Source: Gammaproteobacteria bacterium
GTDB taxonomy: Bacteria; Pseudomonadota; Gammaproteobacteria; Eutrophobiales; Eutrophobiaceae
Length of the DNA stretch: 64,000 nt
Reading direction: 5' to 3'
NCBI GenBank assembly: GCA_003250975.1
Contig: QKIY01000009.1
Location: forward strand, 30,727-94,726
Numbering within the stretch: the first letter of the stretch is position 1; each line of letters opens with the position of its first letter. Position numbers and translations under genes: made by a program. The notes under the pieces are model-generated. The model worked only from the letters and a program-made list of their open reading frames with translations, was not told the origin of the DNA and did no database searches. This document shows, in pieces, positions 1,571-62,302 of the stretch.

Positions 1571-2380
1571 TCATTTTATAACATCAGGATAAAAAAGTTG
1601 CTTGCCGTGTACCTTGAAACTACGAATCAGAGACTGTCCTTCATCCCCCGTTAAAAAGTCGATATATTTCCTTCCCTGGATCGCCTTCACATGGGGATGC
1701 TTGTCCGGATTCACCAGAATGACATGATAGGGGTTGAACAATTCCTTTGCCCCTTGATACAACACTTGTAATTCAAGCTTGTCGGCAAACGCCAGGTAAG
1801 TTCCCCGGTCACTCAGGGTATAAGCCTGTTTTTCATCAGTGATACGCAACACCTGTCCCATGCCCTGGCCCACCGAGAGGTACCAGTTCCCACCAGGCTG
1901 CTCAATATCAGCCATGCTCCAGAGTTGCCTTTCCTTCTTGTGTGTGCCGGAATCATCACCTCGCGAGACAAACGTACTACCGCTCTGCCGGATACGTTTG
2001 AAGGCATCCGCCACGGAGTTTGCCTTCGCAATATCCGCCGGGTCTTCAGCCGGACCGAGAATAATAAAATCATTATGCATTACCGCCTGCCGTTCGATAC
2101 CGAAGCCTGCTTTCACAAATTCCATCTCGGCCGCCGGCGCATGAACCAGAACCACATCCACATCACCACCCCTGCCCAGTCGTAGGGCCTTGCCCGTCCC
2201 TACAGCGATGACATGAACCTGAATGCCGGTGGCCTCTTCGAAGGCGGGGTTTATTATCGATAATAATCCGGAATTCTCGGTACTGGTGGTTGTTGCCAGC
2301 CTTATAGTTTCACCGGCATGCACCGGAACCATTATCACAGCGGCCAACACTGCAAAAATGTATTTCTTTATACTGATCAT
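1571..2380 (-). CDS. tupA: Periplasmic tungstate/molybdate-type oxyanion-binding protein (TupA-like, PBP_like_2 family). It is orphan: no adjacent permease or ATPase gene.
   Basis: The 269-aa protein has a signal peptide and the TupA-type oxyanion-binding motif TTTSTENSGLL. The start is an ATG preceded by an AAAGGAAAG RBS. The gene lies 38 bp downstream of the porin gene on the same strand. Confidence 0.6.
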   Translation of the reverse strand: MISIKKYIFAVLAAVIMVPVHAGETIRLATTTSTENSGLLSIINPAFEEATGIQVHVIAVGTGKALRLGRGGDVDVVLVHAPAAEMEFVKAGFGIERQAVMHNDFIILGPAEDPADIAKANSVADAFKRIRQSGSTFVSRGDDSGTHKKERQLWSMADIEQPGGNWYLSVGQGMGQVLRITDEKQAYTLSDRGTYLAFADKLELQVLYQGAKELFNPYHVILVNPDKHPHVKAIQGRKYIDFLTGDEGQSLIRSFKVHGKQLFYPDVIK

Positions 2381-2418
2381 GGCACTTTCCTTTTGTTACT
2401 TAGCAGTTAATTGAATTA

Positions 2419-3789
2419 TTAAAATTCGACCTGGCTTCTGATCTGGAAGATATCGGGCTCATCACCATCTGCGGGACCTCCATCAACATCCAGAACGCTC
2501 ACATAATTCGCTGAAAAACGGATGTTCGGCGTGGCAAACCAGTTCAGGGCCAGTGTGAAGTTATCTTCTTCCCCGCCGGTTATGTCTCCGTCTGTCAGGT
2601 CAACATTGCTGAAGCGCGCCGCGATCTGCCAGGCGCCGATCCCGCCCCTGCCGACGATTCCACGAGGGGTGATCTTCCCGAAGGCCCCTTGATTTGCAAA
2701 ATAATTCATGGATTCCCCTGTCAGGAACCAGCCGCCTTCGATGTAGTAACCGGAGAAATCCAGTGACGGGTTACCCGCTAGCGCACGTTCTAGCATCACG
2801 AAGTAATACTCACCGGCCAGGGATAGTGGCCCGCTTATCAGGGCGGATTCCAGGACAAAGCGGTTGTAATCGTCCGTATCGATGTTTCCGGTATCAACCA
2901 GGCGTGTATCCGTCATGTGCGATTCGGGCCGTTCCCTGAACCGGACATTTTCATTTGTACCCGTATTCCTGTAAGCGGCGGAAGCGCCGAGGTGCAAGCG
3001 GGTGTTCTCCGCCAGCAGGGGCCCGTAGGTCAACCGCCCAGAAAAACCAAAACCCTCATCGTTGTCCGAACCTGCTCCATCGATTCCTTCACCATAGGCG
3101 CCTGCTCCCGCACTCCAGTTGCTGCCGCTGGCCAAGATAGCAGCACCGATATTCCTGCCCGGTACAAACACATGGGGCAGTCCCCTTTCCATGAAGGTGT
3201 TGTACTTCGAGCTGGTCATGTTTTGCAGGCTAAAGGGTTCCTTGAAATGGCCCGTCCGGATCCTGAGCTGGTCAAATCCGTTAAAATCCAGATAGGCGTC
3301 CTGGATCCCGCTGCTGCCCGAGCCGGTAAATTCATACTGCAGTTTGTAACCCCAGTTTTCCCAGAGCTTGCCCTCGGCAAATAACCTTGCGCGCCTGACC
3401 TCCGTGCCATCATTGTGGTGGAGTTCGTCTTCGGAATAGATCGCAGCATCTACCATGATGCGTCCGCCTACCCGGAAAGAAAAATCACCATCCGGTGACT
3501 CAACCATAAATTTGCCTTTGGTCGTTATCCGCGATTGATCCTGTGTGGCCTCGGCGACCTCTGAATTGACAGCCTGTTTGACCTCATCAGTCAATTCCAC
3601 AGCAGCGGGAGACGCAGGTGGCTTGTCTTCATTCACACTCATAATCCTTTGATAGGTCTGCGTATCGATCGTGCCGTTTTCGTGTAACGCCTTGAGCAGC
3701 TCTAGCAAGGCGTCATTATCGGCATAAGATGGCACAATGGTTAAGAGGCCGGAAAGACCGAGGAGGATACAAGCGAATTTCCTGAACAT
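2419..3789 (-). CDS. Phosphate-selective porin O/P family outer-membrane anion porin.
   Basis: The 456-aa protein has a signal peptide and a beta-barrel-rich, Gly/aromatic-rich sequence ending in a C-terminal Phe, matching the OprO/OprP (Porin_O_P) family. Confidence 0.8.
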   Translation of the reverse strand: MFRKFACILLGLSGLLTIVPSYADNDALLELLKALHENGTIDTQTYQRIMSVNEDKPPASPAAVELTDEVKQAVNSEVAEATQDQSRITTKGKFMVESPDGDFSFRVGGRIMVDAAIYSEDELHHNDGTEVRRARLFAEGKLWENWGYKLQYEFTGSGSSGIQDAYLDFNGFDQLRIRTGHFKEPFSLQNMTSSKYNTFMERGLPHVFVPGRNIGAAILASGSNWSAGAGAYGEGIDGAGSDNDEGFGFSGRLTYGPLLAENTRLHLGASAAYRNTGTNENVRFRERPESHMTDTRLVDTGNIDTDDYNRFVLESALISGPLSLAGEYYFVMLERALAGNPSLDFSGYYIEGGWFLTGESMNYFANQGAFGKITPRGIVGRGGIGAWQIAARFSNVDLTDGDITGGEEDNFTLALNWFATPNIRFSANYVSVLDVDGGPADGDEPDIFQIRSQVEF

Positions 3790-3893
3790 GGTTGGCTCCT
3801 GTCTTAATATGTATTAATTTGCATATCTGTGATAAATGTAAAATACATATATGTTACTGGGTTAAGCCATTAAATAAGTAATATTTTGCATAT
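3790..3893. promoter_or_regulatory. Divergent AT-rich control region between the porin/tupA operon and the tunR-like regulator. It carries palindromes and a direct repeat that are candidate operator sites.
   Basis: An ATATG-N10-CATAT inverted repeat lies at about 3807-3826. A 10-bp palindrome ACATATATGT lies at about 3845-3854. TTTGCATAT occurs twice, at about 3818-3826 and 3885-3893. ModE/TunR-family regulators bind palindromic AT-rich operators. Confidence 0.3.
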
Positions 3894-4952
3894 ATGAAGA
3901 TCAGGCCTGATATCTGCTGGAAACTGGAGAATAACAATATCGACCCTGATATCTTCGCCCTCCTGCATGGCATCAGAGCGAAAGGATCACTGAAACAGGC
4001 AGCCGAGGATGCAGGCCTGTCATATCGTCATGCCTGGGGAATACTAAAGGCGCTGGGTGAAAAATTGAAATCACCCCTGACACGAATGGAGAGGGGCCGC
4101 GGTGCCAGCTTGACAGAGGTGGGTGAAAACCTGCTCTGGGCTGAGGAGCTGGCCCGTACGCGCCTAGCGGGGGAACTGCAGGTCTTGGCAGGGGACATCA
4201 ACCGGCAACTGGCGGAGTTTCTCCATGAAGCTCGGTCCGGCAAGCTCCGTATCAATGCCAGCCATGGTCTCGCCATTGCACATCTGCATACTCTGTTGCA
4301 GGAGTCCACCAAACTCATCGTGGACTTTCATTTCCGAGGCAGCCTCGAGAGCCTCAGGGAACTCGCCAACTCCCGTTGTGACATAGCGGGGTTCCATTTT
4401 CCTGCCGGCCCGATTGGCAAAAAGCTTGCACCGCATTACCGGCAGTGGCTGGACAGGGAAAGACATCTTCTTTTTAAATTTGCTACCCGGAAGCAGGGCT
4501 TGATGATCAAGCCCGGCAACCCGCGGAAGATCACTCGTCTCCAGGACCTGACCAAACGTTCCGTCAGATTCATCAATCGTCAGGAGGAATCAGGTACGCG
4601 AACAATCCTTGATGCCCTGCTGAGCGAGCAAAAGATCGATAAGACGCGTATCAAGGGATACCATGATGAAGAATTTACCCATGTAGCTGTCGCCGCATTG
4701 ATTGCCAGCGGGGTAGCAGACGCCGGCTTCGGGATCGAGGCCGCGGCCCGGAAGTTCGGTCTGCAGTTTATCCCCATAGTCTCTGAAACCTATGTGTTTG
4801 CCATAGATTCCTCGATCCAGGAAACGCTGGTGGATGAATTTATCCGGACAGTCAGGTCCCGGAAGATAAAATCTCTCGTCAATGCTCTGCCCGGTTATGA
4901 TGTGAGAGATGCCGGCAGGAAAATGGATATTGAAGATCTGTTTGCAAGCTGA
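3894..4952 (+). CDS. ModE-N-type winged-HTH regulator fused to a periplasmic-binding-protein-like (TupA/ModA-like) sensor domain. This is the TunR-like tungstate/molybdate-responsive architecture.
   Basis: The N-terminal region (LLHGIRAKGSLKQAAEDAGLSYRHAWGILKAL...GRGASLTEVGENLL) matches the ModE N-terminal HTH. The C-terminal ~230 aa are PBP-like rather than TOBE/Mop domains. The gene is divergent from the oprP-like/tupA operon. Confidence 0.65.
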   Translation: MKIRPDICWKLENNNIDPDIFALLHGIRAKGSLKQAAEDAGLSYRHAWGILKALGEKLKSPLTRMERGRGASLTEVGENLLWAEELARTRLAGELQVLAGDINRQLAEFLHEARSGKLRINASHGLAIAHLHTLLQESTKLIVDFHFRGSLESLRELANSRCDIAGFHFPAGPIGKKLAPHYRQWLDRERHLLFKFATRKQGLMIKPGNPRKITRLQDLTKRSVRFINRQEESGTRTILDALLSEQKIDKTRIKGYHDEEFTHVAVAALIASGVADAGFGIEAAARKFGLQFIPIVSETYVFAIDSSIQETLVDEFIRTVRSRKIKSLVNALPGYDVRDAGRKMDIEDLFAS

Positions 4953-4978
4953 AATTGTTCCCTGGTTTCTAGAGAATT

Positions 4979-6454
4979 TCAGGGAAAGACTCCAACATCG
5001 ATGCCCCACACCAATGGCAGCAGGAACACCACGAAGAAGGTGATAACCACGATGCCGATAAGGTTCAGACCCAGTCCCGCTTTCATCATTTGCGGGATGG
5101 TTACATAGCGACTGCCGAATACGATGGCATTAGGCGGTGTGGCAACCGGCAACATAAAGGCAAAAGAGGCGGCTATCGCGGCTGCAATCATGATCCCATA
5201 GGGATGGATCTGCAAGGCCTCGGCAACTGCCATCATAACCGGCAGGGAAATCGAGGCAGTCGCCGTGTTCGAGGTCATTTCTGTCAGCATGATGATCAGG
5301 GCAGTAATCCCCCCGACAATCAAGATGATGGCGGTACCCCGCAGTCCAACCAGCAGCTCGGCAATCGATTTCGTCAGTCCGGATTCGCTGAAACCAGCGG
5401 CCAGTGCAAAACCGCCGCCGAACAATATCAACACATCCCAGGGGATGGTCACGGCGGTCTTCCAATCAAGCAGGAACTGCCGTGCCTTCAGGTTACTGGG
5501 AATTATAAATAATAACAGTGCTCCCCCAATGGCGATGGTCGAATCCTTTACAAATCTCAATGCCTCTATATTCACCAGACCGGTGATAATCCAGCCAAGC
5601 GCCACGAGTACCAGCACAAGCGTGATTATCAACTCTTCACGGGAGAACGGCCCCAACTCCACTGTTTCCTGCCGGATAGTCTCCCGGCTTCCCGGGATAT
5701 GGTCCATGCCCGACGGATAGACCAACCGGGTGAGGTAATACCAAGTAAGGATCAACATGATGAATGACAGGGGAAAGGCAAACATCATCCAGTCCAGCAG
5801 ACGGATAGTCTCACCATACTGCTGTTCAACGATGCCGGCAAAGATGGCATTCGGTGGCGTACCTATCAATGTGGCCACACCACCAATGGATGCGGAATAG
5901 GCAATACCCAGCATCAGGGCGATCCCGAAATTGAAATGCCCTTGCCGGGTATCAACGCATCTGTTTGCTAGCTTATCGAGTTGCCTGCGGGTGCGATCGA
6001 TCACGGCAAGGCCGATGGTCATCATCATCATGGTGGCCGCCGTATTACTGATCCACATCGAAAGCAGGGCCGTCGCCAGCATAAAACCGAGAATAACCCG
6101 CTCGGGCGTATGACCCACAAGTCGCAAAGTAGCTAAGGCGATGCGACGATGCAGTTGCCACTTCTCGACAGTTACGGCGATAAAAAAACCCCCCATAAAG
6201 AGAAAGACCAGATGATTGCCATAGGCCAGTGTAGTCTTGCTGGCACTCATGATCCCCATGGGCGGGTAAAGCACGATCGGCAGCAATGAGGTGGCAGGGA
6301 TTGGGATCGCCTCGGTGATCCAGAAGGCCGCCATCAACAAGGCGATGGCTACTACCCGCATGGATTCGGCGGTAAAACCATCGGGTACGGGCATTAATAA
6401 CACGAGAATAAACAGGGACGGGCCCAGGATAAGGCCTATATTGGCACGTGACAT
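4979..6454 (-). CDS. DASS/SLC13-family Na+-coupled divalent anion symporter (sulfate/dicarboxylate/oxyanion transporter family).
   Basis: The ~491-aa protein is polytopic with duplicated hairpin-type motifs (SNTA..., GTPPN) typical of the DASS/CitT/NadC fold. The ORF-track start at 6457 is TTG; the adjacent ATG at 6452-6454 is used here. Confidence 0.75.
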   Translation of the reverse strand: MSRANIGLILGPSLFILVLLMPVPDGFTAESMRVVAIALLMAAFWITEAIPIPATSLLPIVLYPPMGIMSASKTTLAYGNHLVFLFMGGFFIAVTVEKWQLHRRIALATLRLVGHTPERVILGFMLATALLSMWISNTAATMMMMTIGLAVIDRTRRQLDKLANRCVDTRQGHFNFGIALMLGIAYSASIGGVATLIGTPPNAIFAGIVEQQYGETIRLLDWMMFAFPLSFIMLILTWYYLTRLVYPSGMDHIPGSRETIRQETVELGPFSREELIITLVLVLVALGWIITGLVNIEALRFVKDSTIAIGGALLLFIIPSNLKARQFLLDWKTAVTIPWDVLILFGGGFALAAGFSESGLTKSIAELLVGLRGTAIILIVGGITALIIMLTEMTSNTATASISLPVMMAVAEALQIHPYGIMIAAAIAASFAFMLPVATPPNAIVFGSRYVTIPQMMKAGLGLNLIGIVVITFFVVFLLPLVWGIDVGVFP

Positions 6455-6575
6455 CAAGGGATCTTATCAAAATCCGCCATTAATGTGAGTGACTGGTTTT
6501 TTTGAATTAAAACCGTGCCCAGCAGCCGCTTTTCGTTATAATGCCCGGCTTTGTTCATTAGAGATACCACTGAAC

Positions 6576-15822: not shown

Positions 15823-18800
15823 TTACTTTACCCTGTTTAACAAAGTCAATTCACGCCAGGCCTGCAACAGCGGAAAATAAAGACCCAGTCTTGTCGGTTT
15901 GTCCTCCAAAGCCTGCATCAATCGGGCATACCTGTTGAGCTGGGGCATATAACGCTCCTCTTCCTGTTCGAGAAATGTGTTCAGGTCGGTCCCTTCGTGA
16001 CGGCTGGTCTTGTAGTCGATGATCCAACGATTGCCTTCCTTATCAATAAAGGTGCGGTCCAGGACGACGTTGACTATACAATTATCGATCACGCCCGTGA
16101 CCGGTAATTCACAGGCGCCTGCCTCATGTTCACCTCCGAGAATCCAGCGGCCGCGCTCATCGTCAAGGGTTCTTAGTAAAGCGGCTTCTACATTATCCGT
16201 TGCCCAGGAAAGGTCCGTATCCGGTACACCGTAACGCTTCAGTGCACTTACAAGTCGAAACCGCTGTGAAGTGATATATGACGCGGTCCACAACGCCAGG
16301 CCCTCTTCTGCCATGAGCTGTAGGTAGCGGTGAACGACACTCCCGATATGCTTAATGGTCTCCCCTGCCCATTCGTACTCCGGCAAGGCATCCGGCAATT
16401 GTTGTTGTTCGAAGACCTGAATTGTGTCGATTTCAGGCGGGGGCCCAGGTAATTGCCAGTCGCATGGTAACCTTCGCAGGCAGTTGAATTCGATTACTCC
16501 TGAATCGCCTTCCCCGTTTTCAACCGGCATAAGATTTTCCACCAGTTTTATATACTCCTGTTCAAGTACCGGCCAGAGATGTCTTAACAGAGAGTTTTTT
16601 GCGGGCTGGTTGAAGCCTGCCTTTTCGTGATCGTATTGAATTGAAGTAAAGAGATGAAGTTTGTTCCTTGGCCGTGTTGCCGCAACATAAAGCAAACGGC
16701 CCAGCTCATGGTCCTGCTTCTGGTTCTCGAGCAGATTCAGGTAATCATAAAACGGTGACCGGGTCTGGCCCGCCTGCTTTACCGGCGCCAGCAACAGGTC
16801 CTTGTGACCATGATGCGGTGACTCTGCCCAGGTCAGCAAGCGTGCTTCGTTGTTCCTTCCGCGCCGCTCCAGTGAAGGCACGATTACCTGGTCAAACTCC
16901 AGACCCTTGGCCTTGTGTATCGTCATAATCTGAAGGCTGTCATCGGCATGGACATCCGCTGCAGCAAACAGTTTGCCGACCTGTTCCTCAAACCGTAGCC
17001 TGTCTGACAGGCTGCCACCCTCATCATACTGTTCGAGCAGCTCGAAGAATTCACCGGCATTTTCCAAATCAGACTCATCATTCAGTGTGGCGGGACCACC
17101 GAGACCCAGCCATACTGATTCTACGGTCCTCCGTAACGACCTGCGGCCCTGTTGTGTTAATGCCTGTTCCAGGACGCTCTTAACGCGCAGTAGCCGTTGG
17201 CGCCCTTCTTCCGGCAGGAGGTCCAGCCTGACAGGGGAATGCATGCACTCCCAAACTGTCTTTTGTTGGTCCCCGTTGGTCAGTAACAGCAGGTCATCCA
17301 GAGACAGGCCGCACCAGGGTGCGCGCAGGATGGCAAGCCAGGCAATTCGGTCAGCCAGGTGATCCAGAGCCCTGGTCAGCGCCAGGAGGTCCTGTATCGC
17401 TGGACGCTGCCCCAGTTCATCAATCTCCACCGCCTTAAAGCGCAATCCCGCAGCCTTCAGGGCCGGGGTTATCTCCAGCAAATGATTGCGGTTACGAACC
17501 AGTATGGCAATGCGCTGAGCAGGGTCTTCCTGTCTGGCTGACTGGATCAGTTGCACGATCTGCCGCCCCTCCTCAACCGCACTGGCGGCAAGGTGCGGGC
17601 AGACCGCCCTGGTCCCCACTACCGAATGAAAGGCAACCGCACTGGCATAACTGACGGCACCACGGGTACTATCGGCGACTTCCGGCAGGATATGGCTGAA
17701 TGCATCGTTCACCCAGTCGACGACACCGGCCTGTGAGCGGAAATTGACCCTGATATTCAGCGGCACCAGGGAAACCTGCCCGAGGCGTTTTTGTTCCCAT
17801 GTATCAAGAAACAGGCCCACCTCGGCCTCCCTGAAGCGATAGATGGATTGCATGGGATCGCCCACCAGGAAGAGGCTGTGGCCATCACCGTGCGACCAGC
17901 CTGCCGTCAGCCTTTCGACGAGTTCATACTGGTTAACGGAGACATCCTGGAATTCATCGATCAGAAGGTGTCTGATCCGGTAATCAAGCCGCAGGGCAAG
18001 GTCCGTTGGTGTATCTTCTTGACCTAGGGCCTGTATGGCGGCCCGCGTAATACCGGTAAAGTCTATCTGGTTACGCTCCCCGAACAGCACGCTCAGATGG
18101 GCATCGGCCAGTTTCAGGAGTTCGCACAGGGCCCTGACCACCTGCCAGTCGGCATCTGTGTAATGCAGGGGAGGCAGGCAACGGATATCAGTCAGTTGAG
18201 ATAACAGCTCTTCGTCACCGGAGAGCCGGGACAACAGCGCCTGGACCCCGTCCTTCATCCGCTTGCGAATCTCTCCCTCTGCTGTCTTGTCGGCCGCCGG
18301 AAAACCGGTCTGTTTATTGACCTGCTTGCGCCATGTATTGCTGGTCGTCAGGCAGAGCTCGGAGATTGCCAGCCAGGGTGGTAGATCCGTAACCGTGAAA
18401 CCGGGGAACGCCTTGATTTCTCTACAGTGAGTAATCACCGAGTCCGATCCCTCTGCGGCAAGATTGCCCGCCGCAAAGCGGAGATACCCCAGCATCTCTT
18501 CCTGGTATTCGGCCGGGAAAAGCGTCAGGGCAATCTCCAGCGTGGCCTCTATGGCATGTCCGAATGCAGACTCCAGGGTGTCACGATCAATATTGCCCGC
18601 GATATGACGCAACCACTGATCGCGTCTCGCCAGCATTTCGGCGAGCATATTCCTGGCAACGACCAAGTTATTATCCAGATGGGCGAGTAATACAGCGATG
18701 TCATCGGACCAGTGTTCACCACTTTCAAGCTCCGCCAGGGTATTGACCGAGGCCTGCAGATACAACTCACTGGCGTCATCCAGCAATTCGGGTTGAGCCC

Positions 18801-36842: not shown

Positions 36843-38633
36843 TCAGTTAGCCGATTGCCTTACGCCATAAAGCTTCGAGTAAAGGCCATTCTGGGACAGT
36901 AACTCCCTGTGACTGCCTTGTTCACTGATAGTACCGGATTCGAACACATATACATGGCTTGCCTGTTTAATCGCACTCAACCTGTGGGCAACGATTATTG
37001 TCGTCCTGTTATGTAGGAACCTGCTCATTGCTTCATGCAACCTGTATTCTGTTTCAGCGTCGAGGGCGGAGGTTGCTTCATCCAGAATAACTACCTTGGG
37101 ATCCGTCAGAATCATCCTGGCAATTGCCAGGCGTTGCCTCTGCCCCCCGGAAAGACGCACCCCCTGCCGACCAACAATCGTATCGAGACCCAGAGGCAGT
37201 TCCTCTACAGTAACCTTTAATTGTGCAATTTCCAGTGCCTGCCAGAGTTCAGCATCACTGGTATCACGACCCAGAGTCAGGTTGGTACGAATGGTGTCGT
37301 TAAATATGGCAGGATGCTGAAGAACCGTCGCTACGTTTTCACGGACAACATCGAGACCGATCTGTGATACCGGTATGTCATCGTAATAGACCATCCCGGA
37401 ACGGGCCGGGTAGAGGCCAATCAGAACTTGTACCAGGGTTGATTTGCCTCCACCACTGGCTCCCACCAGGGCAACCTTGTCACCGGGTTTTACGACCAAA
37501 TCGATTCCATTCAGCACATCCGGTCCATCACCATAAGCAAAATAGAGATCTTCAATCCTGATCCCCACCGTAGTCTTGTTGAGAAAGGGATTTACCTCGT
37601 GAGGATAATCAGGTTCCTGATTCAAATCCGCCAACTTGTTTATCCGGTTCAGCGCTGCATTGGCGCTGTAATAGGCATACTGGATATTAAGAATCTCCTG
37701 AACGGGGCCCATCATGAACCACAGGTAGCCAAATACGGCAAACATATGCCCGATAGTCAGATCTGAAAAAACTACCATCAACATCGATACCGCCCGGAAC
37801 ACATCAAAACCAAATAGGAAGACCATGAAGCTGAAGCGGTTGGCAGCATCACTCTTCCAGGCAAAGGCAGACCCATGGTTCTTTACTGCACGGGCCTGAT
37901 CGATGATCCGGAGTATGTAATGCCGCTCCCGATTGCTTGCCCTGATCTGGTGGATGGAATCCAGTGTTTCGGTAAGAGCCTGCTGAAATGCGGCAAAGGC
38001 TGCGTTCTCCCTGCTTTTCAATTCCTTAACCTGTTTCCCCAACAGCATGGTGAAATAAATGACGACCGGATTTGCAAAGAGAATAAAGAGCGCGAGTTGC
38101 CAGTGAATCCAGAGCAGGATAACAGCGACACCGACAATCGATAGCAAGGCAACAAGTAACCGGCTTACCGTGGTTCCGACAAACTGGTCTATGGTATCCA
38201 GATCAGTAACAAAATAAGAAGCGACAGTACCACTACCCAATGTTTCATACTCGGACATCGATACTTTTTCCAGACGGGAAAGCAAAGCACGTCTGATCCT
38301 GTAAATTACATCCTTTGCTATAAAAGTGAATTGTCTCGTCTGCCAGACATTCAATATTAGTGCTATCAGCCTGAGGAGCACTGATAAAATAAATACAGTC
38401 AGGATATAGAGTACCGGCCCATGCCATGTGGCCGGCGTTAATGAATTGATAGTCCCGACAATCATCCCTGGTTGGTCCAAGAGGACCTCATCGACCAGAA
38501 GTGGCAGCAGGAGGGGAACAGGCACGCTGCTGACGGTTGCCATAATCGCAATCAGGTTGGCAAGAATGACTTCTTTCCGGTGCTCTTCAGCGACGGAAAG
38601 AATATAGCGCCAGTCATATCGTAACTTTGTCAT
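36843..38633 (-). CDS. ABC exporter with fused transmembrane and ATP-binding domains (MsbA/multidrug-type).
   Basis: The protein has a 6-TM domain plus a Walker A motif (GASGGGKST), the ABC signature LSGGQRQRLAIARMIL and a Walker B motif (ILDEATSALD). Confidence 0.85.
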   Translation of the reverse strand: MTKLRYDWRYILSVAEEHRKEVILANLIAIMATVSSVPVPLLLPLLVDEVLLDQPGMIVGTINSLTPATWHGPVLYILTVFILSVLLRLIALILNVWQTRQFTFIAKDVIYRIRRALLSRLEKVSMSEYETLGSGTVASYFVTDLDTIDQFVGTTVSRLLVALLSIVGVAVILLWIHWQLALFILFANPVVIYFTMLLGKQVKELKSRENAAFAAFQQALTETLDSIHQIRASNRERHYILRIIDQARAVKNHGSAFAWKSDAANRFSFMVFLFGFDVFRAVSMLMVVFSDLTIGHMFAVFGYLWFMMGPVQEILNIQYAYYSANAALNRINKLADLNQEPDYPHEVNPFLNKTTVGIRIEDLYFAYGDGPDVLNGIDLVVKPGDKVALVGASGGGKSTLVQVLIGLYPARSGMVYYDDIPVSQIGLDVVRENVATVLQHPAIFNDTIRTNLTLGRDTSDAELWQALEIAQLKVTVEELPLGLDTIVGRQGVRLSGGQRQRLAIARMILTDPKVVILDEATSALDAETEYRLHEAMSRFLHNRTTIIVAHRLSAIKQASHVYVFESGTISEQGSHRELLSQNGLYSKLYGVRQSAN

Positions 38634-43946: not shown

Positions 43947-46451
43947 TTAGTCTTTTTTATCCAACTGTGATTCAATATCTGAAAACAGGTTTTTTGTAGC
44001 ATTTTCAGCTTCTCTTTTTGCGGCCTCAGCCCTTTCCTTGATACGTTTAACATGTTCCGAATGTGATATCACCCTTGACGCACTTCGTTCCAGTCTATCC
44101 TGCTCATCCATAAACATGGCGAGATCTTCTTCTACCTGCCTTCCGAGATCATCGTTTTTCAACTGCTGAACCTCTATCTCCTGACGTCTGATCTGTTCTG
44201 CGGTCTGCACATTAACCTTGGCCTGATGTGCATTTTCCAGGTTCTTTTCAGCCTGCCTCAACTTGTATTCAGCCATCCTCATCTGATCTTCAGCTTCTTT
44301 CCTGGCCTTTTCATCAAGGGCATCGGCCTGTGCAGCACGAAGTTTTTGTGCTTCAAGGGCCGCTGCAGCCTTGGCTGCTTCAGCTTCCCTTTTGGTCCTT
44401 TCTATGTCATTCAGAACTTCCTTTATCTTGCTGGATTCCTTTTCCAGCTGCTTCTTTTCATGTTCAAGCCTTGCACGTTCCTTGGCTCTTTCTTCTTCAA
44501 ACTGCTTTTTATATTCATCTATAATGCTTTTTGCTTCTTCTGCTGCTGCCTTGCGTGCTGCTTCAGCCATGGCATTTTTCTTGTTAGCCTCTTCCAGCTC
44601 GGCATTTGCTTTAGCTACTTCCTCGGCGAGTGTACGTCTTTCTGCCTCAAGCTTGGCCTTTGCCTTGGCCTGGGCCTCCTTTTCCATATTAGCCTGCTCT
44701 TCACGTTTCCTGCTGGCCTCTTCTTCCAGGGCCTTATGCGATTCTTCAAGTTTCTTTTTAACCTCATCGGCACTCTGTAATTTTTCCCTGGCCTCGGCAG
44801 CTTCCTGTTCAAGCTTTTCCCGCTCCTTCCTTATTTGCTCCTCAGCCTCCTGCTTCATTTTTTGGAGCTTCTCCATCTCCTCGGTATTCTTGGAATAAAT
44901 CTCCTCCAGTTTCTTCTTTTCGTCGGCAAGACGTTTTTCCGTTTCTTCCTTTAATTTTGCAATCTTTCGGGCTTCTTCTTCCTTGAACCTTCTGGCCTCT
45001 TCTTCGGCTGCTTTCTTTTCAATCTCGAGTTTTTTTCTCTCATCTTCCAGTTCCTGTTTCTTGCGCCTTATATCAGTTGTATCCTCATCGTCCCTGGCTT
45101 CGGCCAGCCTATGACTAGTGTCCTCGAGCTTCAATTCATTCTTGGCAATGTCCGCATCGATCACGGCTGAACGTACTGCCGGATCATCATTATCCTCTGA
45201 TTCAAATACAGGAGCCCGTTGTGTTCTGCGTTTTGGCTTGCCTTCCTTTGAGGATGGTTCCGGGCGTGTGGTTTTTGCCGGAGCCGGCCTGTCTTTTTTC
45301 AGAGTAGGTGCTTCTGCCTTCGCTGGAGTCAGTTTTTCTTTTTTCGGTGCAGTCGCTTCTGCCTCTGAACCCAGTGACGGTATCGAAGCCAATCCGCCTT
45401 TTAGGACGCTGACATTAAATCCGTTATTAATCAGGGTGAAAGCAGCAGCTGAACTGCGACCACCTGAATCACAGCAGATAATATATTGTTTGTTCTTATC
45501 CAGTTTATCCAGCTGCGCCCGCAACATGTTAAATGGAATATTGATGCTGCCCTTAATACTGGATTCCTTAAATTCATCTTTAAAACGGACATCAAGCCAG
45601 ACTGCACCAGCTTCCACCAAGGTCTTGCCCTGATCATAAGTGACTTCGCTCATTGAAGGTATTTTTACCAGTGTGATGAAGTTTTCCTTGCTGAGCTTCA
45701 TCAAGATACCATCGGTCTTCATAATGACAGACGCATTGCGTTTACCCCCCATCAGCAACGCTTCTTCACCAAAACTGTCACCAGGAGACAAATCAGCAAG
45801 CTTGACCGGCTTGGAACCGGGGGATGGTATTCTGGAAACTTCACACTGGCCATCCTGAATAATGTAATAACTGTCACCGGGATCGCCCTGCTTGATTACC
45901 GTATTACCTGCCTTGAATTCCAGGGGCTCAAGCATGACAAATAATTGCTGGATATTGGCGGTTGGCAACTGGCTGAAGATTTCGGATTGCAACATCTTGG
46001 TCATCCAGTCGACCGCATCATCTTCATCCCCGATTTCGCTGACTTCAAAATGTCGACTGGCGGTTATAGTTGTACTATCCGACTTGTCTGCAACAATTGT
46101 CCTGTCGACAGCAGCCTTATCCAGTTGGAGAACCATGCAGTCTTCCACGGCCCTGGCGGTAAACTGGCGTGGCAAAAGGCGAGCCATGGCATAGCGTGCA
46201 CTGTCTGTACCTCCTGTAATGGTACTTTTCACTTCCCTGTTCGAAAGCATTTCGATCACGCCCTCTAGCAGGTAATACGTAAAATTGTCTCTGTCTCCCT
46301 GTTTAAAGACGACGTTCCTTTTCCCGTACTTGAACACCTTCCCCATCTGGATAATCTCGTTCTGGGCCTGGGTAGACAGCTCATCGAACGGCACCAAGGT
46401 CCTTATCAGTTCAACATACGGTTTTTTGTCTAGTTCTTTATTAAAGATCAT
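43947..46451 (-). CDS. Large multidomain protein with two cyclic-nucleotide-binding (CAP-family) domains, a rhodanese domain and a ~450-aa K/E-rich coiled-coil tail.
   Basis: The first CNB domain is degenerate (residues ~30-150). The second is canonical, with GDSFGEEALLMGGKRNASVIMK. The rhodanese domain has an active-site Cys in ICCDSGGRS. From ~aa 380 to the end the sequence is low-complexity, charged and heptad-like (EEARRFKEEEARKIAKLKEETEKRLADEKKKLEE...). Confidence 0.7.
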   Translation of the reverse strand: MIFNKELDKKPYVELIRTLVPFDELSTQAQNEIIQMGKVFKYGKRNVVFKQGDRDNFTYYLLEGVIEMLSNREVKSTITGGTDSARYAMARLLPRQFTARAVEDCMVLQLDKAAVDRTIVADKSDSTTITASRHFEVSEIGDEDDAVDWMTKMLQSEIFSQLPTANIQQLFVMLEPLEFKAGNTVIKQGDPGDSYYIIQDGQCEVSRIPSPGSKPVKLADLSPGDSFGEEALLMGGKRNASVIMKTDGILMKLSKENFITLVKIPSMSEVTYDQGKTLVEAGAVWLDVRFKDEFKESSIKGSINIPFNMLRAQLDKLDKNKQYIICCDSGGRSSAAAFTLINNGFNVSVLKGGLASIPSLGSEAEATAPKKEKLTPAKAEAPTLKKDRPAPAKTTRPEPSSKEGKPKRRTQRAPVFESEDNDDPAVRSAVIDADIAKNELKLEDTSHRLAEARDDEDTTDIRRKKQELEDERKKLEIEKKAAEEEARRFKEEEARKIAKLKEETEKRLADEKKKLEEIYSKNTEEMEKLQKMKQEAEEQIRKEREKLEQEAAEAREKLQSADEVKKKLEESHKALEEEASRKREEQANMEKEAQAKAKAKLEAERRTLAEEVAKANAELEEANKKNAMAEAARKAAAEEAKSIIDEYKKQFEEERAKERARLEHEKKQLEKESSKIKEVLNDIERTKREAEAAKAAAALEAQKLRAAQADALDEKARKEAEDQMRMAEYKLRQAEKNLENAHQAKVNVQTAEQIRRQEIEVQQLKNDDLGRQVEEDLAMFMDEQDRLERSASRVISHSEHVKRIKERAEAAKREAENATKNLFSDIESQLDKKD
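43950..45314. repeat. Low-complexity GAA/AAG-rich coding repeat region (the K/E-rich coiled coil) within the 834-aa CDS.
   Basis: Purine-rich codon runs on the coding strand produce many long spurious antisense ORFs (44226-45858). Confidence 0.5.
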
Positions 46452-61867: not shown

Positions 61868-62302
61868 GTGGGTGCGTCCTGTTTCTTCCTCTACGATATT
61901 ATCAACGACCTGAACAAGGGGATGGACAGCGCCTTGCACCTGCTGCTTGAAGGCTGTGTGTTTGTCGCGACATCAATTGCCTTATATATTGAGATCAGGC
62001 GTGTAATTGGACTACACAAAAGGATTATTATTGAAGAGGGGAAGGTCTCCAGATTGACCGGGGAGCTGTTTGCGATCATTAACAGTGAATTTGATAAATG
62101 GAACCTGACAGACACAGAAAAGGAAATTGCCATCCTGCTGATCAAGGGACTGTCAATGCGCGAGATTGGTGAATTACGGCAGGTTAAGGAAAAAACAATC
62201 CGCCAGCAGGCTACACAGATCTACGCAAAGGCAGGCTATTCAAACCGCCAGGAACTGGCGTCCCATTTTATTGAAGATCTTATCAACACCGCCCCGCGGT
62301 AA
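61868..62302 (+). CDS. Membrane-anchored LuxR/GerE-family HTH transcriptional regulator.
   Basis: The protein has an N-terminal hydrophobic segment and a C-terminal LuxR-type HTH (TEKEIAILLIKGLSMREIGELRQVKEKTIRQQATQIYAKAG). The start is GTG. Confidence 0.65.
   Translation: MGASCFFLYDIINDLNKGMDSALHLLLEGCVFVATSIALYIEIRRVIGLHKRIIIEEGKVSRLTGELFAIINSEFDKWNLTDTEKEIAILLIKGLSMREIGELRQVKEKTIRQQATQIYAKAGYSNRQELASHFIEDLINTAPR

Follow-up and report, generated by a model that had tools for sequence, protein, structure and literature searches.

A porin-tupA operon with its own predicted hybrid regulator as the probable outer half of a split tungstate uptake pathway in Gammaproteobacteria

Among the systems described to date, the closest to the one considered here is TupABC, known from Eubacterium acidaminophilum, Campylobacter jejuni, Desulfovibrio alaskensis and Geobacter, in which TupA is the binding protein of an ATP-binding cassette (ABC) importer formed by TupB and TupC. 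The pocket of D. alaskensis TupA is made up of T9-11, S12, H59, R118, T124 and D170; R118 is decisive for oxyanion binding, and the protein does not bind sulfate, phosphate or perchlorate (PMC5517513). Characterised TupAs bind tungstate with dissociation constants (Kd) of ~1-6 pM and molybdate with values of 6-50 nM, and prefer tungstate 10^3 to 10^4.7 fold (PMC5517513). In the current study, we analysed a 64,000-nt stretch of DNA from a gammaproteobacterium (contig QKIY01000009.1, hereafter called the window), in which a locus at positions 1571-6457 comprises four open reading frames (ORFs) for a TupA-like substrate-binding protein (SBP), an OprO/P-family porin, a one-component regulator and a carrier of the DASS family (Table 1). 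We believe that this locus is quite probably the outer half of a split uptake pathway for tungstate, and possibly also for molybdate, whose ABC pump genes are located elsewhere in the genome.

The window SBP shares with TupABC the TTTS motif and the H, R, T and D ligands of the binding protein, and relatives of the window have tupA, tupB and a tupC whose product bears a TOBE domain together in a single operon. The window differs in that its tupA is detached from tupBC and is instead co-operonic with a porin gene under a regulator of its own, and this detached arrangement dominates an entire marine gammaproteobacterial clade. For the outer membrane, the closest described proteins are OprP and OprO of Pseudomonas aeruginosa, which belong to the same Pfam family as the window porin. 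The logic is also alike, in that an anion-specific channel supplies a high-affinity ABC importer that relies on an SBP (for OprP, PstS/PstABC), although the neighbours of the window porin gene are tupA and the gene for a Mo/W-type regulator, not pst genes. General porins are usually assumed to be the outer-membrane route for molybdate and tungstate, and the literature we searched held no description of a tungstate or molybdate porin. The closest parallel for an outer-membrane component devoted to the uptake of group-6 oxyanions is the ModA-IcmP route of P. aeruginosa (cited in PMC11734730), where a ModA secreted by the type VI secretion system docks on a non-porin outer-membrane protein, whereas the window encodes a periplasmic SBP and a predicted diffusion channel.

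Judged by its sequence, the window SBP is a true member of the TupA family. A PDB search returned TupA structures with E values from 7e-80 to 5e-56, including Geobacter TupA 3LR1 (7e-80; ~56% identical, as counted by eye), 3MUQ (1.5e-78) and D. alaskensis TupA 5MY5 (1e-64). Apart from TupAs, the search matched only a ‘putative metal binding protein’ (4e-14); binding proteins of the ModA, PstS or phosphonate kinds were absent at E <= 0.001. Likewise, no phosphate or phosphonate family exceeded threshold in Pfam, NCBIfam or the PDB. The preliminary description of this DNA had made its interpretation depend on the SBP grouping with TupA and not with phosphate or phosphonate binders, and this is how the protein groups, with every PDB match but one being a TupA. 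The only NCBIfam match is also to TupA, at a score (242 bits) that is below the equivalog cut-off of the NF041772 model (400 bits). Because TupAs encoded inside real tupABC operons score 315, 223, 242 and 190 bits and so also fall short, we attribute this to a narrow model rather than to a different function.

The details of the pocket agree with this assignment. The SBP carries the motif TTTSTENSGLL at residues 30-40, and the equivalents of all D. alaskensis ligands are kept (T30-32, S33, H80, R140, T146 and D191). In an alignment of 11 TupAs drawn from porin-linked and ABC-linked loci, these residues are invariant except for T30 and S33, the latter being nearly so. By eye, the protein begins with a Sec-type signal peptide, MISIKKYIFAVLAAVIMVPVHA, which is followed by GE. 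The SBP is of the TupA type and not a DctP- or TctC-type binder of a TRAP or TTT transporter, and no membrane component of such transporters (DctQM/TctAB) was found among the 36 window ORFs scanned with Pfam (six at the locus and 30 further, larger ones).

The arrangement of the genes ties the SBP to the porin and the regulator. The porin and SBP genes lie on the same strand with 38 bp between them, and the regulator gene is divergent from the porin gene across an AT-rich 104-bp spacer. To see how widespread this coupling is, a metagenome scan was seeded with an alignment of seven porins and yielded 80 loci. A TupA gene lies beside the porin in 62 of these porin-seeded loci and a divergent regulator is present in 46, with moaC found in 32, moaE in 28, a DASS gene in two and tupBC in only one. 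Among genomes, the closest relatives found by seeding with the SBP are metagenome-assembled genomes (MAGs) of Methylococcales, Methylophagaceae and Piscirickettsiaceae. In a neighbour-joining tree of 142 TupAs, which like the ORF calling in high-GC loci is rough, all porin-linked proteins fall in one clade that also holds the tupB-linked TupAs of the comparison loci L008, L011, L015 and L116, whereas most of the other loci, from other lineages, have tupB adjacent to tupA.

Perhaps the best single argument that an outer-membrane channel plays a functional part in the system comes from two loci in which the porin is absent. In L088 (8472-9842) and L183 (3557-4936), the position between the regulator and tupA is occupied by an Alginate_exp (AlgE-type) barrel of 456-459 aa, and the barrel of L088 has no similarity to the window porin that is detectable by BLASTP. 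Such non-orthologous displacement points to a need for an outer-membrane channel as such at this position. The preliminary description had grouped the porin and regulator with the SBP as a module of the tungstate/molybdate type, and both the grouping and the type are borne out by these findings.

The control region holds a conserved pair of candidate operators. These were recognised as copies of a 20-bp palindrome, whose consensus was drawn up by eye using the spacers of the window and of a few orthologous loci. With up to one mismatch allowed, the window holds two matches where 0.17 are expected, and both are located in the porin-regulator spacer. A pair of matches 63-67 bp apart is also present in L009, L088, L091 and L183. 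The 80 metagenomic loci (710 kb), which played no part in deriving the motif, contain 56 matches, of which 50 lie within 350 bp upstream of a porin start, and the spacing of the pairs clusters at 65-67 bp. In the Methylophaga MAG locus L012, an operator pair (16399-16494) lies upstream of fdsG/fdsB, which are genes of an NAD-linked formate dehydrogenase. This placement suggests that a likely tungsten or molybdenum enzyme is part of the regulon as well. Riboswitch control by the molybdenum cofactor was also considered, and no Rfam match to the Moco riboswitch reached the gathering score in the window, L009, L012, L091 or L093.

The protein presumed to bind these operators appears to be a hybrid of a ModE-type DNA-binding domain and a TaoR-type sensor that resembles a periplasmic binding protein (PBP), and this combination is new. 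The N-terminus matches the ModE structure 1O7L (residues 16-101, E 2e-5), and HTH_1 (24 bits) and ModE_repress are the only families matched there; the TIGR00637 match (45 bits) is under its cut-off of 98.5. PBP_like PF12727 is matched at 194 bits. No TOBE match that would indicate a Mop/TOBE di-domain, no integrase (XerC/D-like) domain, no HTH_17 and no membrane domain were detected in the regulator by the Pfam scan. A BLASTP comparison of the regulator with TupA was not significant (E 0.29). Profile alignment by hhalign of seven regulator orthologues with the 11 TupAs gave a modest match (E 2e-4, probability 45%), in which H168, R229 and S233-G234-T235 of the regulator are placed on H80, R140 and S144-G145-T146 of TupA. 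Given that H168, R229, G234 and T235 are invariant in the seven orthologues, this alignment suggests that the sensor is a cytoplasmic oxyanion pocket of the TupA kind.

Each of the known regulators therefore resembles the window protein in part. It has in common with ModE an apparently homologous N-terminal winged helix-turn-helix (HTH) and an AT-rich 20-bp palindrome as its candidate operator, the ModE box being an AT-rich palindrome with a 6-bp centre, and differs from ModE in that the Mop/TOBE di-domain is missing and the predicted sensing domain has a PBP fold. TunR, which is reported (Kazakov et al. 2013) to have an XerC/D-like DNA-binding domain and ModE-like Mop domains, is similar in being a tungstate-related regulator that adjoins tup genes, although neither of its reported domain types was detected here. 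TaoR, a regulator of tungsten-dependent aldehyde oxidoreductase and Mo/W transport (Rajeev et al. 2019, cited in PMC11980592 and PMC12327845), is similar in having a PF12727 effector domain on a one-component regulator and in its involvement in tungsten homeostasis. According to PMC11980592, the PBP-like domain is canonical for TaoR and the DNA-binding domain of TaoR-like proteins is of the HTH_17 type, in contrast to the ModE-N/LysR-like domain of the window protein. The apparent targets also differ from those of TaoR, being the porin-tupA operon and, in Methylophaga, the fds genes. Thus the make-up of an HTH and a PBP-like domain that had been proposed from the sequence is correct, but the name given to it, the TunR architecture, is wrong because the PBP-like sensor is a hallmark of TaoR (PMC11980592).

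The porin, on the basis of alignment, is an OprO/P-family member that belongs to a distinct, TupA-linked subfamily. It matches PF07396 at 236 bits (cut-off 20.9), OprP (2O4V) at E 1.7e-24 and OprO at about 1e-24. When seven TupA-linked porins were aligned with OprP and OprO, the core arginines R34, R59, R60 and R133 of OprP were found to be kept in all seven, the window porin included. Changes are seen at positions 62 and 114, which we take to be those that tell OprP (Y62, Y114) from OprO (F62, D114). The window porin is basic at both, with R139 and K190, respectively, and this is largely true of the subfamily (R at position 62 in six of the seven, K or R at position 114 in six of the seven). 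K121, which is N in the window porin, has been lost from the TupA-linked porins together with most of the periplasmic lysine cluster, some loops are shorter, and the alignment at D94 is ambiguous. These characteristics are consistent with an anion channel that has a changed constriction. The window porin also has an N-terminal extension of ~65 residues that is not in the aligned part of OprP/OprO. This extension holds a conserved helix motif, LLxLLKALHxNGTIxxxxY (window 3640-3717, residues ~25-50), which occurs as well in porin relatives that have no TupA neighbour.

The preliminary description had noted that tupB and tupC are missing, and this statement holds for the window and for the 5 kb upstream of it but probably not for the system, which need not lack an ABC transporter. 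Searches by tblastn with TupB and TupC queries across the window gave no match to TupB anywhere, and the only ATPase match was an ABC_membrane-ABC_tran fusion at 36843-38633. The Logan contig L001, which is identical to the window, runs ~5 kb past position 1 and carries the rest of an antiporter gene, two small ORFs, fabB and fabA. The possibility that tupBC lie just upstream of position 1, which had been named as a finding that would undo the proposal of a non-ABC route, was therefore rejected for these ~5 kb. We also sought the organism's own TupB among NCBI and Logan TupB homologues (P0224, P0194 and P0176), but all of these came from other assemblies, and the search yielded the relatives L177 and L183. 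The flanks of L093, a locus with tupBC and no SBP gene, show no synteny with the window except for a weak MscS paralogue.

The relatives are more informative. ENA ERZ25071291 contig_1 (4,665,672 bp) is from the closest relative with a long assembly, and at 1.24-1.26 Mb it carries fabA-fabB followed by the regulator, Porin_O_P and TupA genes in synteny with the window (SBP 66-67%, porin 57.5% and regulator 50% identical). There is no tupBC within 10 kb of this locus. However, the same contig has a tupB-tupC(TOBE) pair at 0.41-0.43 Mb, ~830 kb from the porin-tupA locus, and within 10 kb of this pair there is no SBP gene. A second tupBC pair that lacks an SBP gene (L177) is again located beside miaB-phoH-ybeY-corC. 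At the same miaB site, L183 has an unsplit version, in which the regulator gene is followed divergently by the Alginate_exp barrel, tupA, tupB and tupC, complete with the operator pair. L116 is likewise unsplit, with a porin-tupA-tupB-tupC operon, and tupABC of L078 is preceded, at a distance of 1.7 kb, by the gene for a distant Porin_O_P relative. Because relatives carry both split and unsplit versions, a split TupABC is the simplest reading of the window, and the absence of tupBC from it is probably only local.

Other oddities among the tup genes of this clade were recorded. In the Methyloprofundus locus L004 (8866-9849) and the Bathymodiolus symbiont locus L016 (8787-9770), tupA and a TOBE-bearing tupC are transcribed divergently and tupB is lacking within 10 kb, and an ATPase gene without a permease gene indicates that tup genes scatter in this clade. 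Directly after tupC in L093 (11734-12791), L177 (9835-10833) and L183 (7889-8880) are two ORFs of 208-212 aa and 113 aa with no Pfam match on record, which may be further parts of the tungstate system. Finally, in the Thiotrichales-like loci L063 (10869-12248) and L067 (11058-12275), the gene after tupA, in the same orientation, codes for a multi-pass membrane protein of 405-459 aa with a weak sodium:solute symporter (SSS) match (PF00474 25.5 bits; TIGR00813 36 bits). The divergent regulator and the operator are present in both loci and there is no tupB within 10 kb, and so these may be systems that combine TupA with a secondary carrier.

We envision that the split pathway would operate as follows. 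The regulator would sense cytoplasmic tungstate or molybdate, bind the two 20-bp palindromes in the 104-bp spacer, and thereby set expression of the porin-tupA operon by the cytoplasmic oxyanion level, in a direction that we can only infer. It probably also controls its own gene, because operator 2 abuts the regulator start codon. The OprO/P-type porin would provide a selective path for the oxyanion through the outer membrane, and TupA in the periplasm would trap it with very high affinity and pass it on to a TupB-TupC importer whose genes lie in another part of the genome. The oxyanion would likely end up in a tungsten or molybdenum pterin cofactor, for example that of a formate dehydrogenase, an end point with which the linked moaC, moaE and fds genes of relatives agree.

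Some observations weigh against this proposal and should be considered when judging it. The presence of tupBC in the window genome is deduced from relatives whose TupA is 61-67% identical, and no operator was found upstream of the tupBC pairs of L093 and L177, leaving co-regulation of the two halves unsupported. The count of TupA genes among the metagenomic loci measures how often the porin has a TupA and not the reverse, given that the loci were found through the porin. Among the 13 genome loci closest to the window when seeded with the SBP (L004-L016), three have the porin and three have tupB. Furthermore, ~10 porin relatives (40-53% identical) with enough flanking DNA have no adjoining TupA, which means that the wider porin clade is not exclusively tungstate-related. 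The oxyanion selectivity of the porin is a prediction, and so is the choice of tungstate over molybdate as the substrate, since sequence cannot separate these two ions.

The preliminary description had offered the neighbouring DASS protein as the inner-membrane partner, such that the oxyanion would pass from the porin to TupA and then to a Na+/anion symporter acting as an SBP-dependent secondary transporter. The DASS gene does abut the regulator gene in the window and lies close to the module in L088 (67% identity), L094 and L097 as well; its closest solved relatives are SLC13 proteins, among which are sulfate as well as carboxylate carriers; and the SSS-like genes directly after tupA in L063 and L067 indicate that TupA with a secondary carrier is not absurd in principle. 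We nevertheless consider this route highly improbable. L088, L094 and L097 are all near relatives of the window, and the DASS gene is absent from the L091 module and from 78 of the 80 porin-seeded loci. It is convergent with the regulator gene and forms its own transcription unit, with no operator match in its promoter region (6458-6575), and in L088 a gene resembling those for rRNA methyltransferases intervenes between it and the regulator. No DASS member is known to use an SBP. The pocket motifs are also of the carboxylate type, with P in GTPPN and T in VATPPN, as in VcINDY (GSPPN) and NaDC1, whereas NaS1 has GTSTN and VANPPN. These are the two positions, S260 and N533 of NaS1, that separate sulfate from carboxylate carriers (PMC10980263). 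On grounds of conservation, transcription unit, operator and pocket motifs, we therefore rejected the DASS protein as the carrier of the module and regard it, from its sequence and context, as a carrier of the di- or tricarboxylate type that is unrelated to the module and has stayed nearby through synteny.

If TupA had no dedicated importer, it might serve only to concentrate or report tungstate in the periplasm, and one could point to the separation of tupA from tupBC in most members of the clade and to the lack of an upstream operator for the tupBC pairs without an SBP gene. This, too, we regard as quite improbable. Those same pairs need an SBP from somewhere, and complete tupBC operons in the same TupA clade (L116, L008, L011 and L015) and in L183 make a buffer or sensor unnecessary. 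No chemoreceptor or histidine kinase is conserved beside the module as a partner, and a one-component cytoplasmic regulator in which no membrane domain was detected cannot read a periplasmic TupA. A different question is whether the mechanism is right and the substrate wrong, with molybdate or another tetrahedral oxyanion being the main cargo. Points in favour are the ModE-like DNA-binding domain of the regulator and a candidate operator that, like the ModE box, is AT-rich and palindromic around a 6-bp centre. Both cofactors depend on moaC and moaE, and characterised TupAs bind molybdate with nanomolar Kd (PMC5517513). Even so, we hold this to be unlikely, because the R118 equivalent and the TTTS motif are intact and characterised TupAs strongly prefer tungstate (PMC5517513). 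Sulfate, phosphate and perchlorate are disfavoured by the selectivity of the D. alaskensis protein (PMC5517513), with which the lack of any phosphate or phosphonate family match at threshold agrees. In seawater, molybdate is present at roughly 100 nM and tungstate at tens of pM, and at these levels the Kd values of characterised TupAs imply that the protein would load mainly tungstate, an argument by which we favour this ion. It is also conceivable, if doubtful, that porin and TupA form an autonomous and separately regulated periplasmic tungstate concentrator, in which a channel selective for group-6 oxyanions and a picomolar trap feed different carriers: TupBC in most cases and an SSS-family protein in L063 and L067. 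If true, this would give two firsts, namely a dedicated tungstate porin and a TupA-type SBP that serves a non-ABC carrier.

The coordinates of the features discussed above are collected in Table 1. All four ORFs are present where the preliminary description had placed them, and the family scans agree with the names it used.

Table 1. Genes and control elements of the porin-tupA locus in the 64,000-nt window
Feature	Position	Strand	Characteristics
SBP gene (tupA-like)	1571..2380	-	269 aa; PBP_like_2 158 bits; NCBIfam TupA 242 bits
OprO/P-family porin gene, first of the porin-tupA operon	2419..3789	-	456 aa; Porin_O_P PF07396 236 bits
Divergent control region, porin/regulator	3790..3893	.	AT-rich 104-bp spacer holding both operator copies
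Candidate operator 1 ATATGTATTAATTTGCATAT	3807..3826	.	palindrome ATATGNA-N6-TNCATAT, 0 mismatches
Candidate operator 2 ATAAGTAATATTTTGCATAT	3874..3893	.	1 mismatch; 67 bp from operator 1; ends at the base before the regulator start codon
One-component regulator gene	3894..4952	+	352 aa; ModE-type winged HTH + PF12727 194 bits
DASS carrier gene	4979..6457	-	492 aa; TIGR00785 288 bits (cut-off 198.6)

To the left of the locus, a gene for a CPA1-type cation/proton antiporter converges on the SBP gene, and on the other side the DASS gene is divergent from typA. The remainder of the window is of a housekeeping nature (AddAB, CysG, ApbC, MetG, Rnf, two-component systems and others), and no gene for a molybdenum or tungsten enzyme or its cofactor was found among the 30 further ORFs annotated with Pfam. 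An ORF at 43947-46451 codes for a protein of 834 aa with two stretches that match cyclic nucleotide monophosphate (cNMP)-binding domains and a rhodanese domain, and more than half of this protein has no family match. It sits in a region of odd strand composition (AT skew -0.33 and GC skew -0.18 in the 44-46 kb bin). The product of another ORF, at 61868-62302, is identical to a protein encoded on contig QJWO01000068.1 of GCA_003235935.1 and in the Logan run SRR7216773, and we take that assembly to be a sibling MAG.

Every component family of this system is already known. What is new is that an outer-membrane channel is coupled to tupA, which is usually detached from tupBC, in a conserved arrangement under operator control. 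For those who annotate genomes, the finding carries the warning that the ABC pump should not be taken as missing from a member of this clade when its tupA is an ‘orphan’. For the biology of marine Gammaproteobacteria, the alternation of an OprP-like channel and a non-homologous AlgE-like barrel in one operon slot argues that passage of the oxyanion through the outer membrane is a regulated and specialised step. A selective channel coupled to a picomolar trap would suit organisms that use tungsten-dependent formate dehydrogenase at the tungstate levels of seawater.

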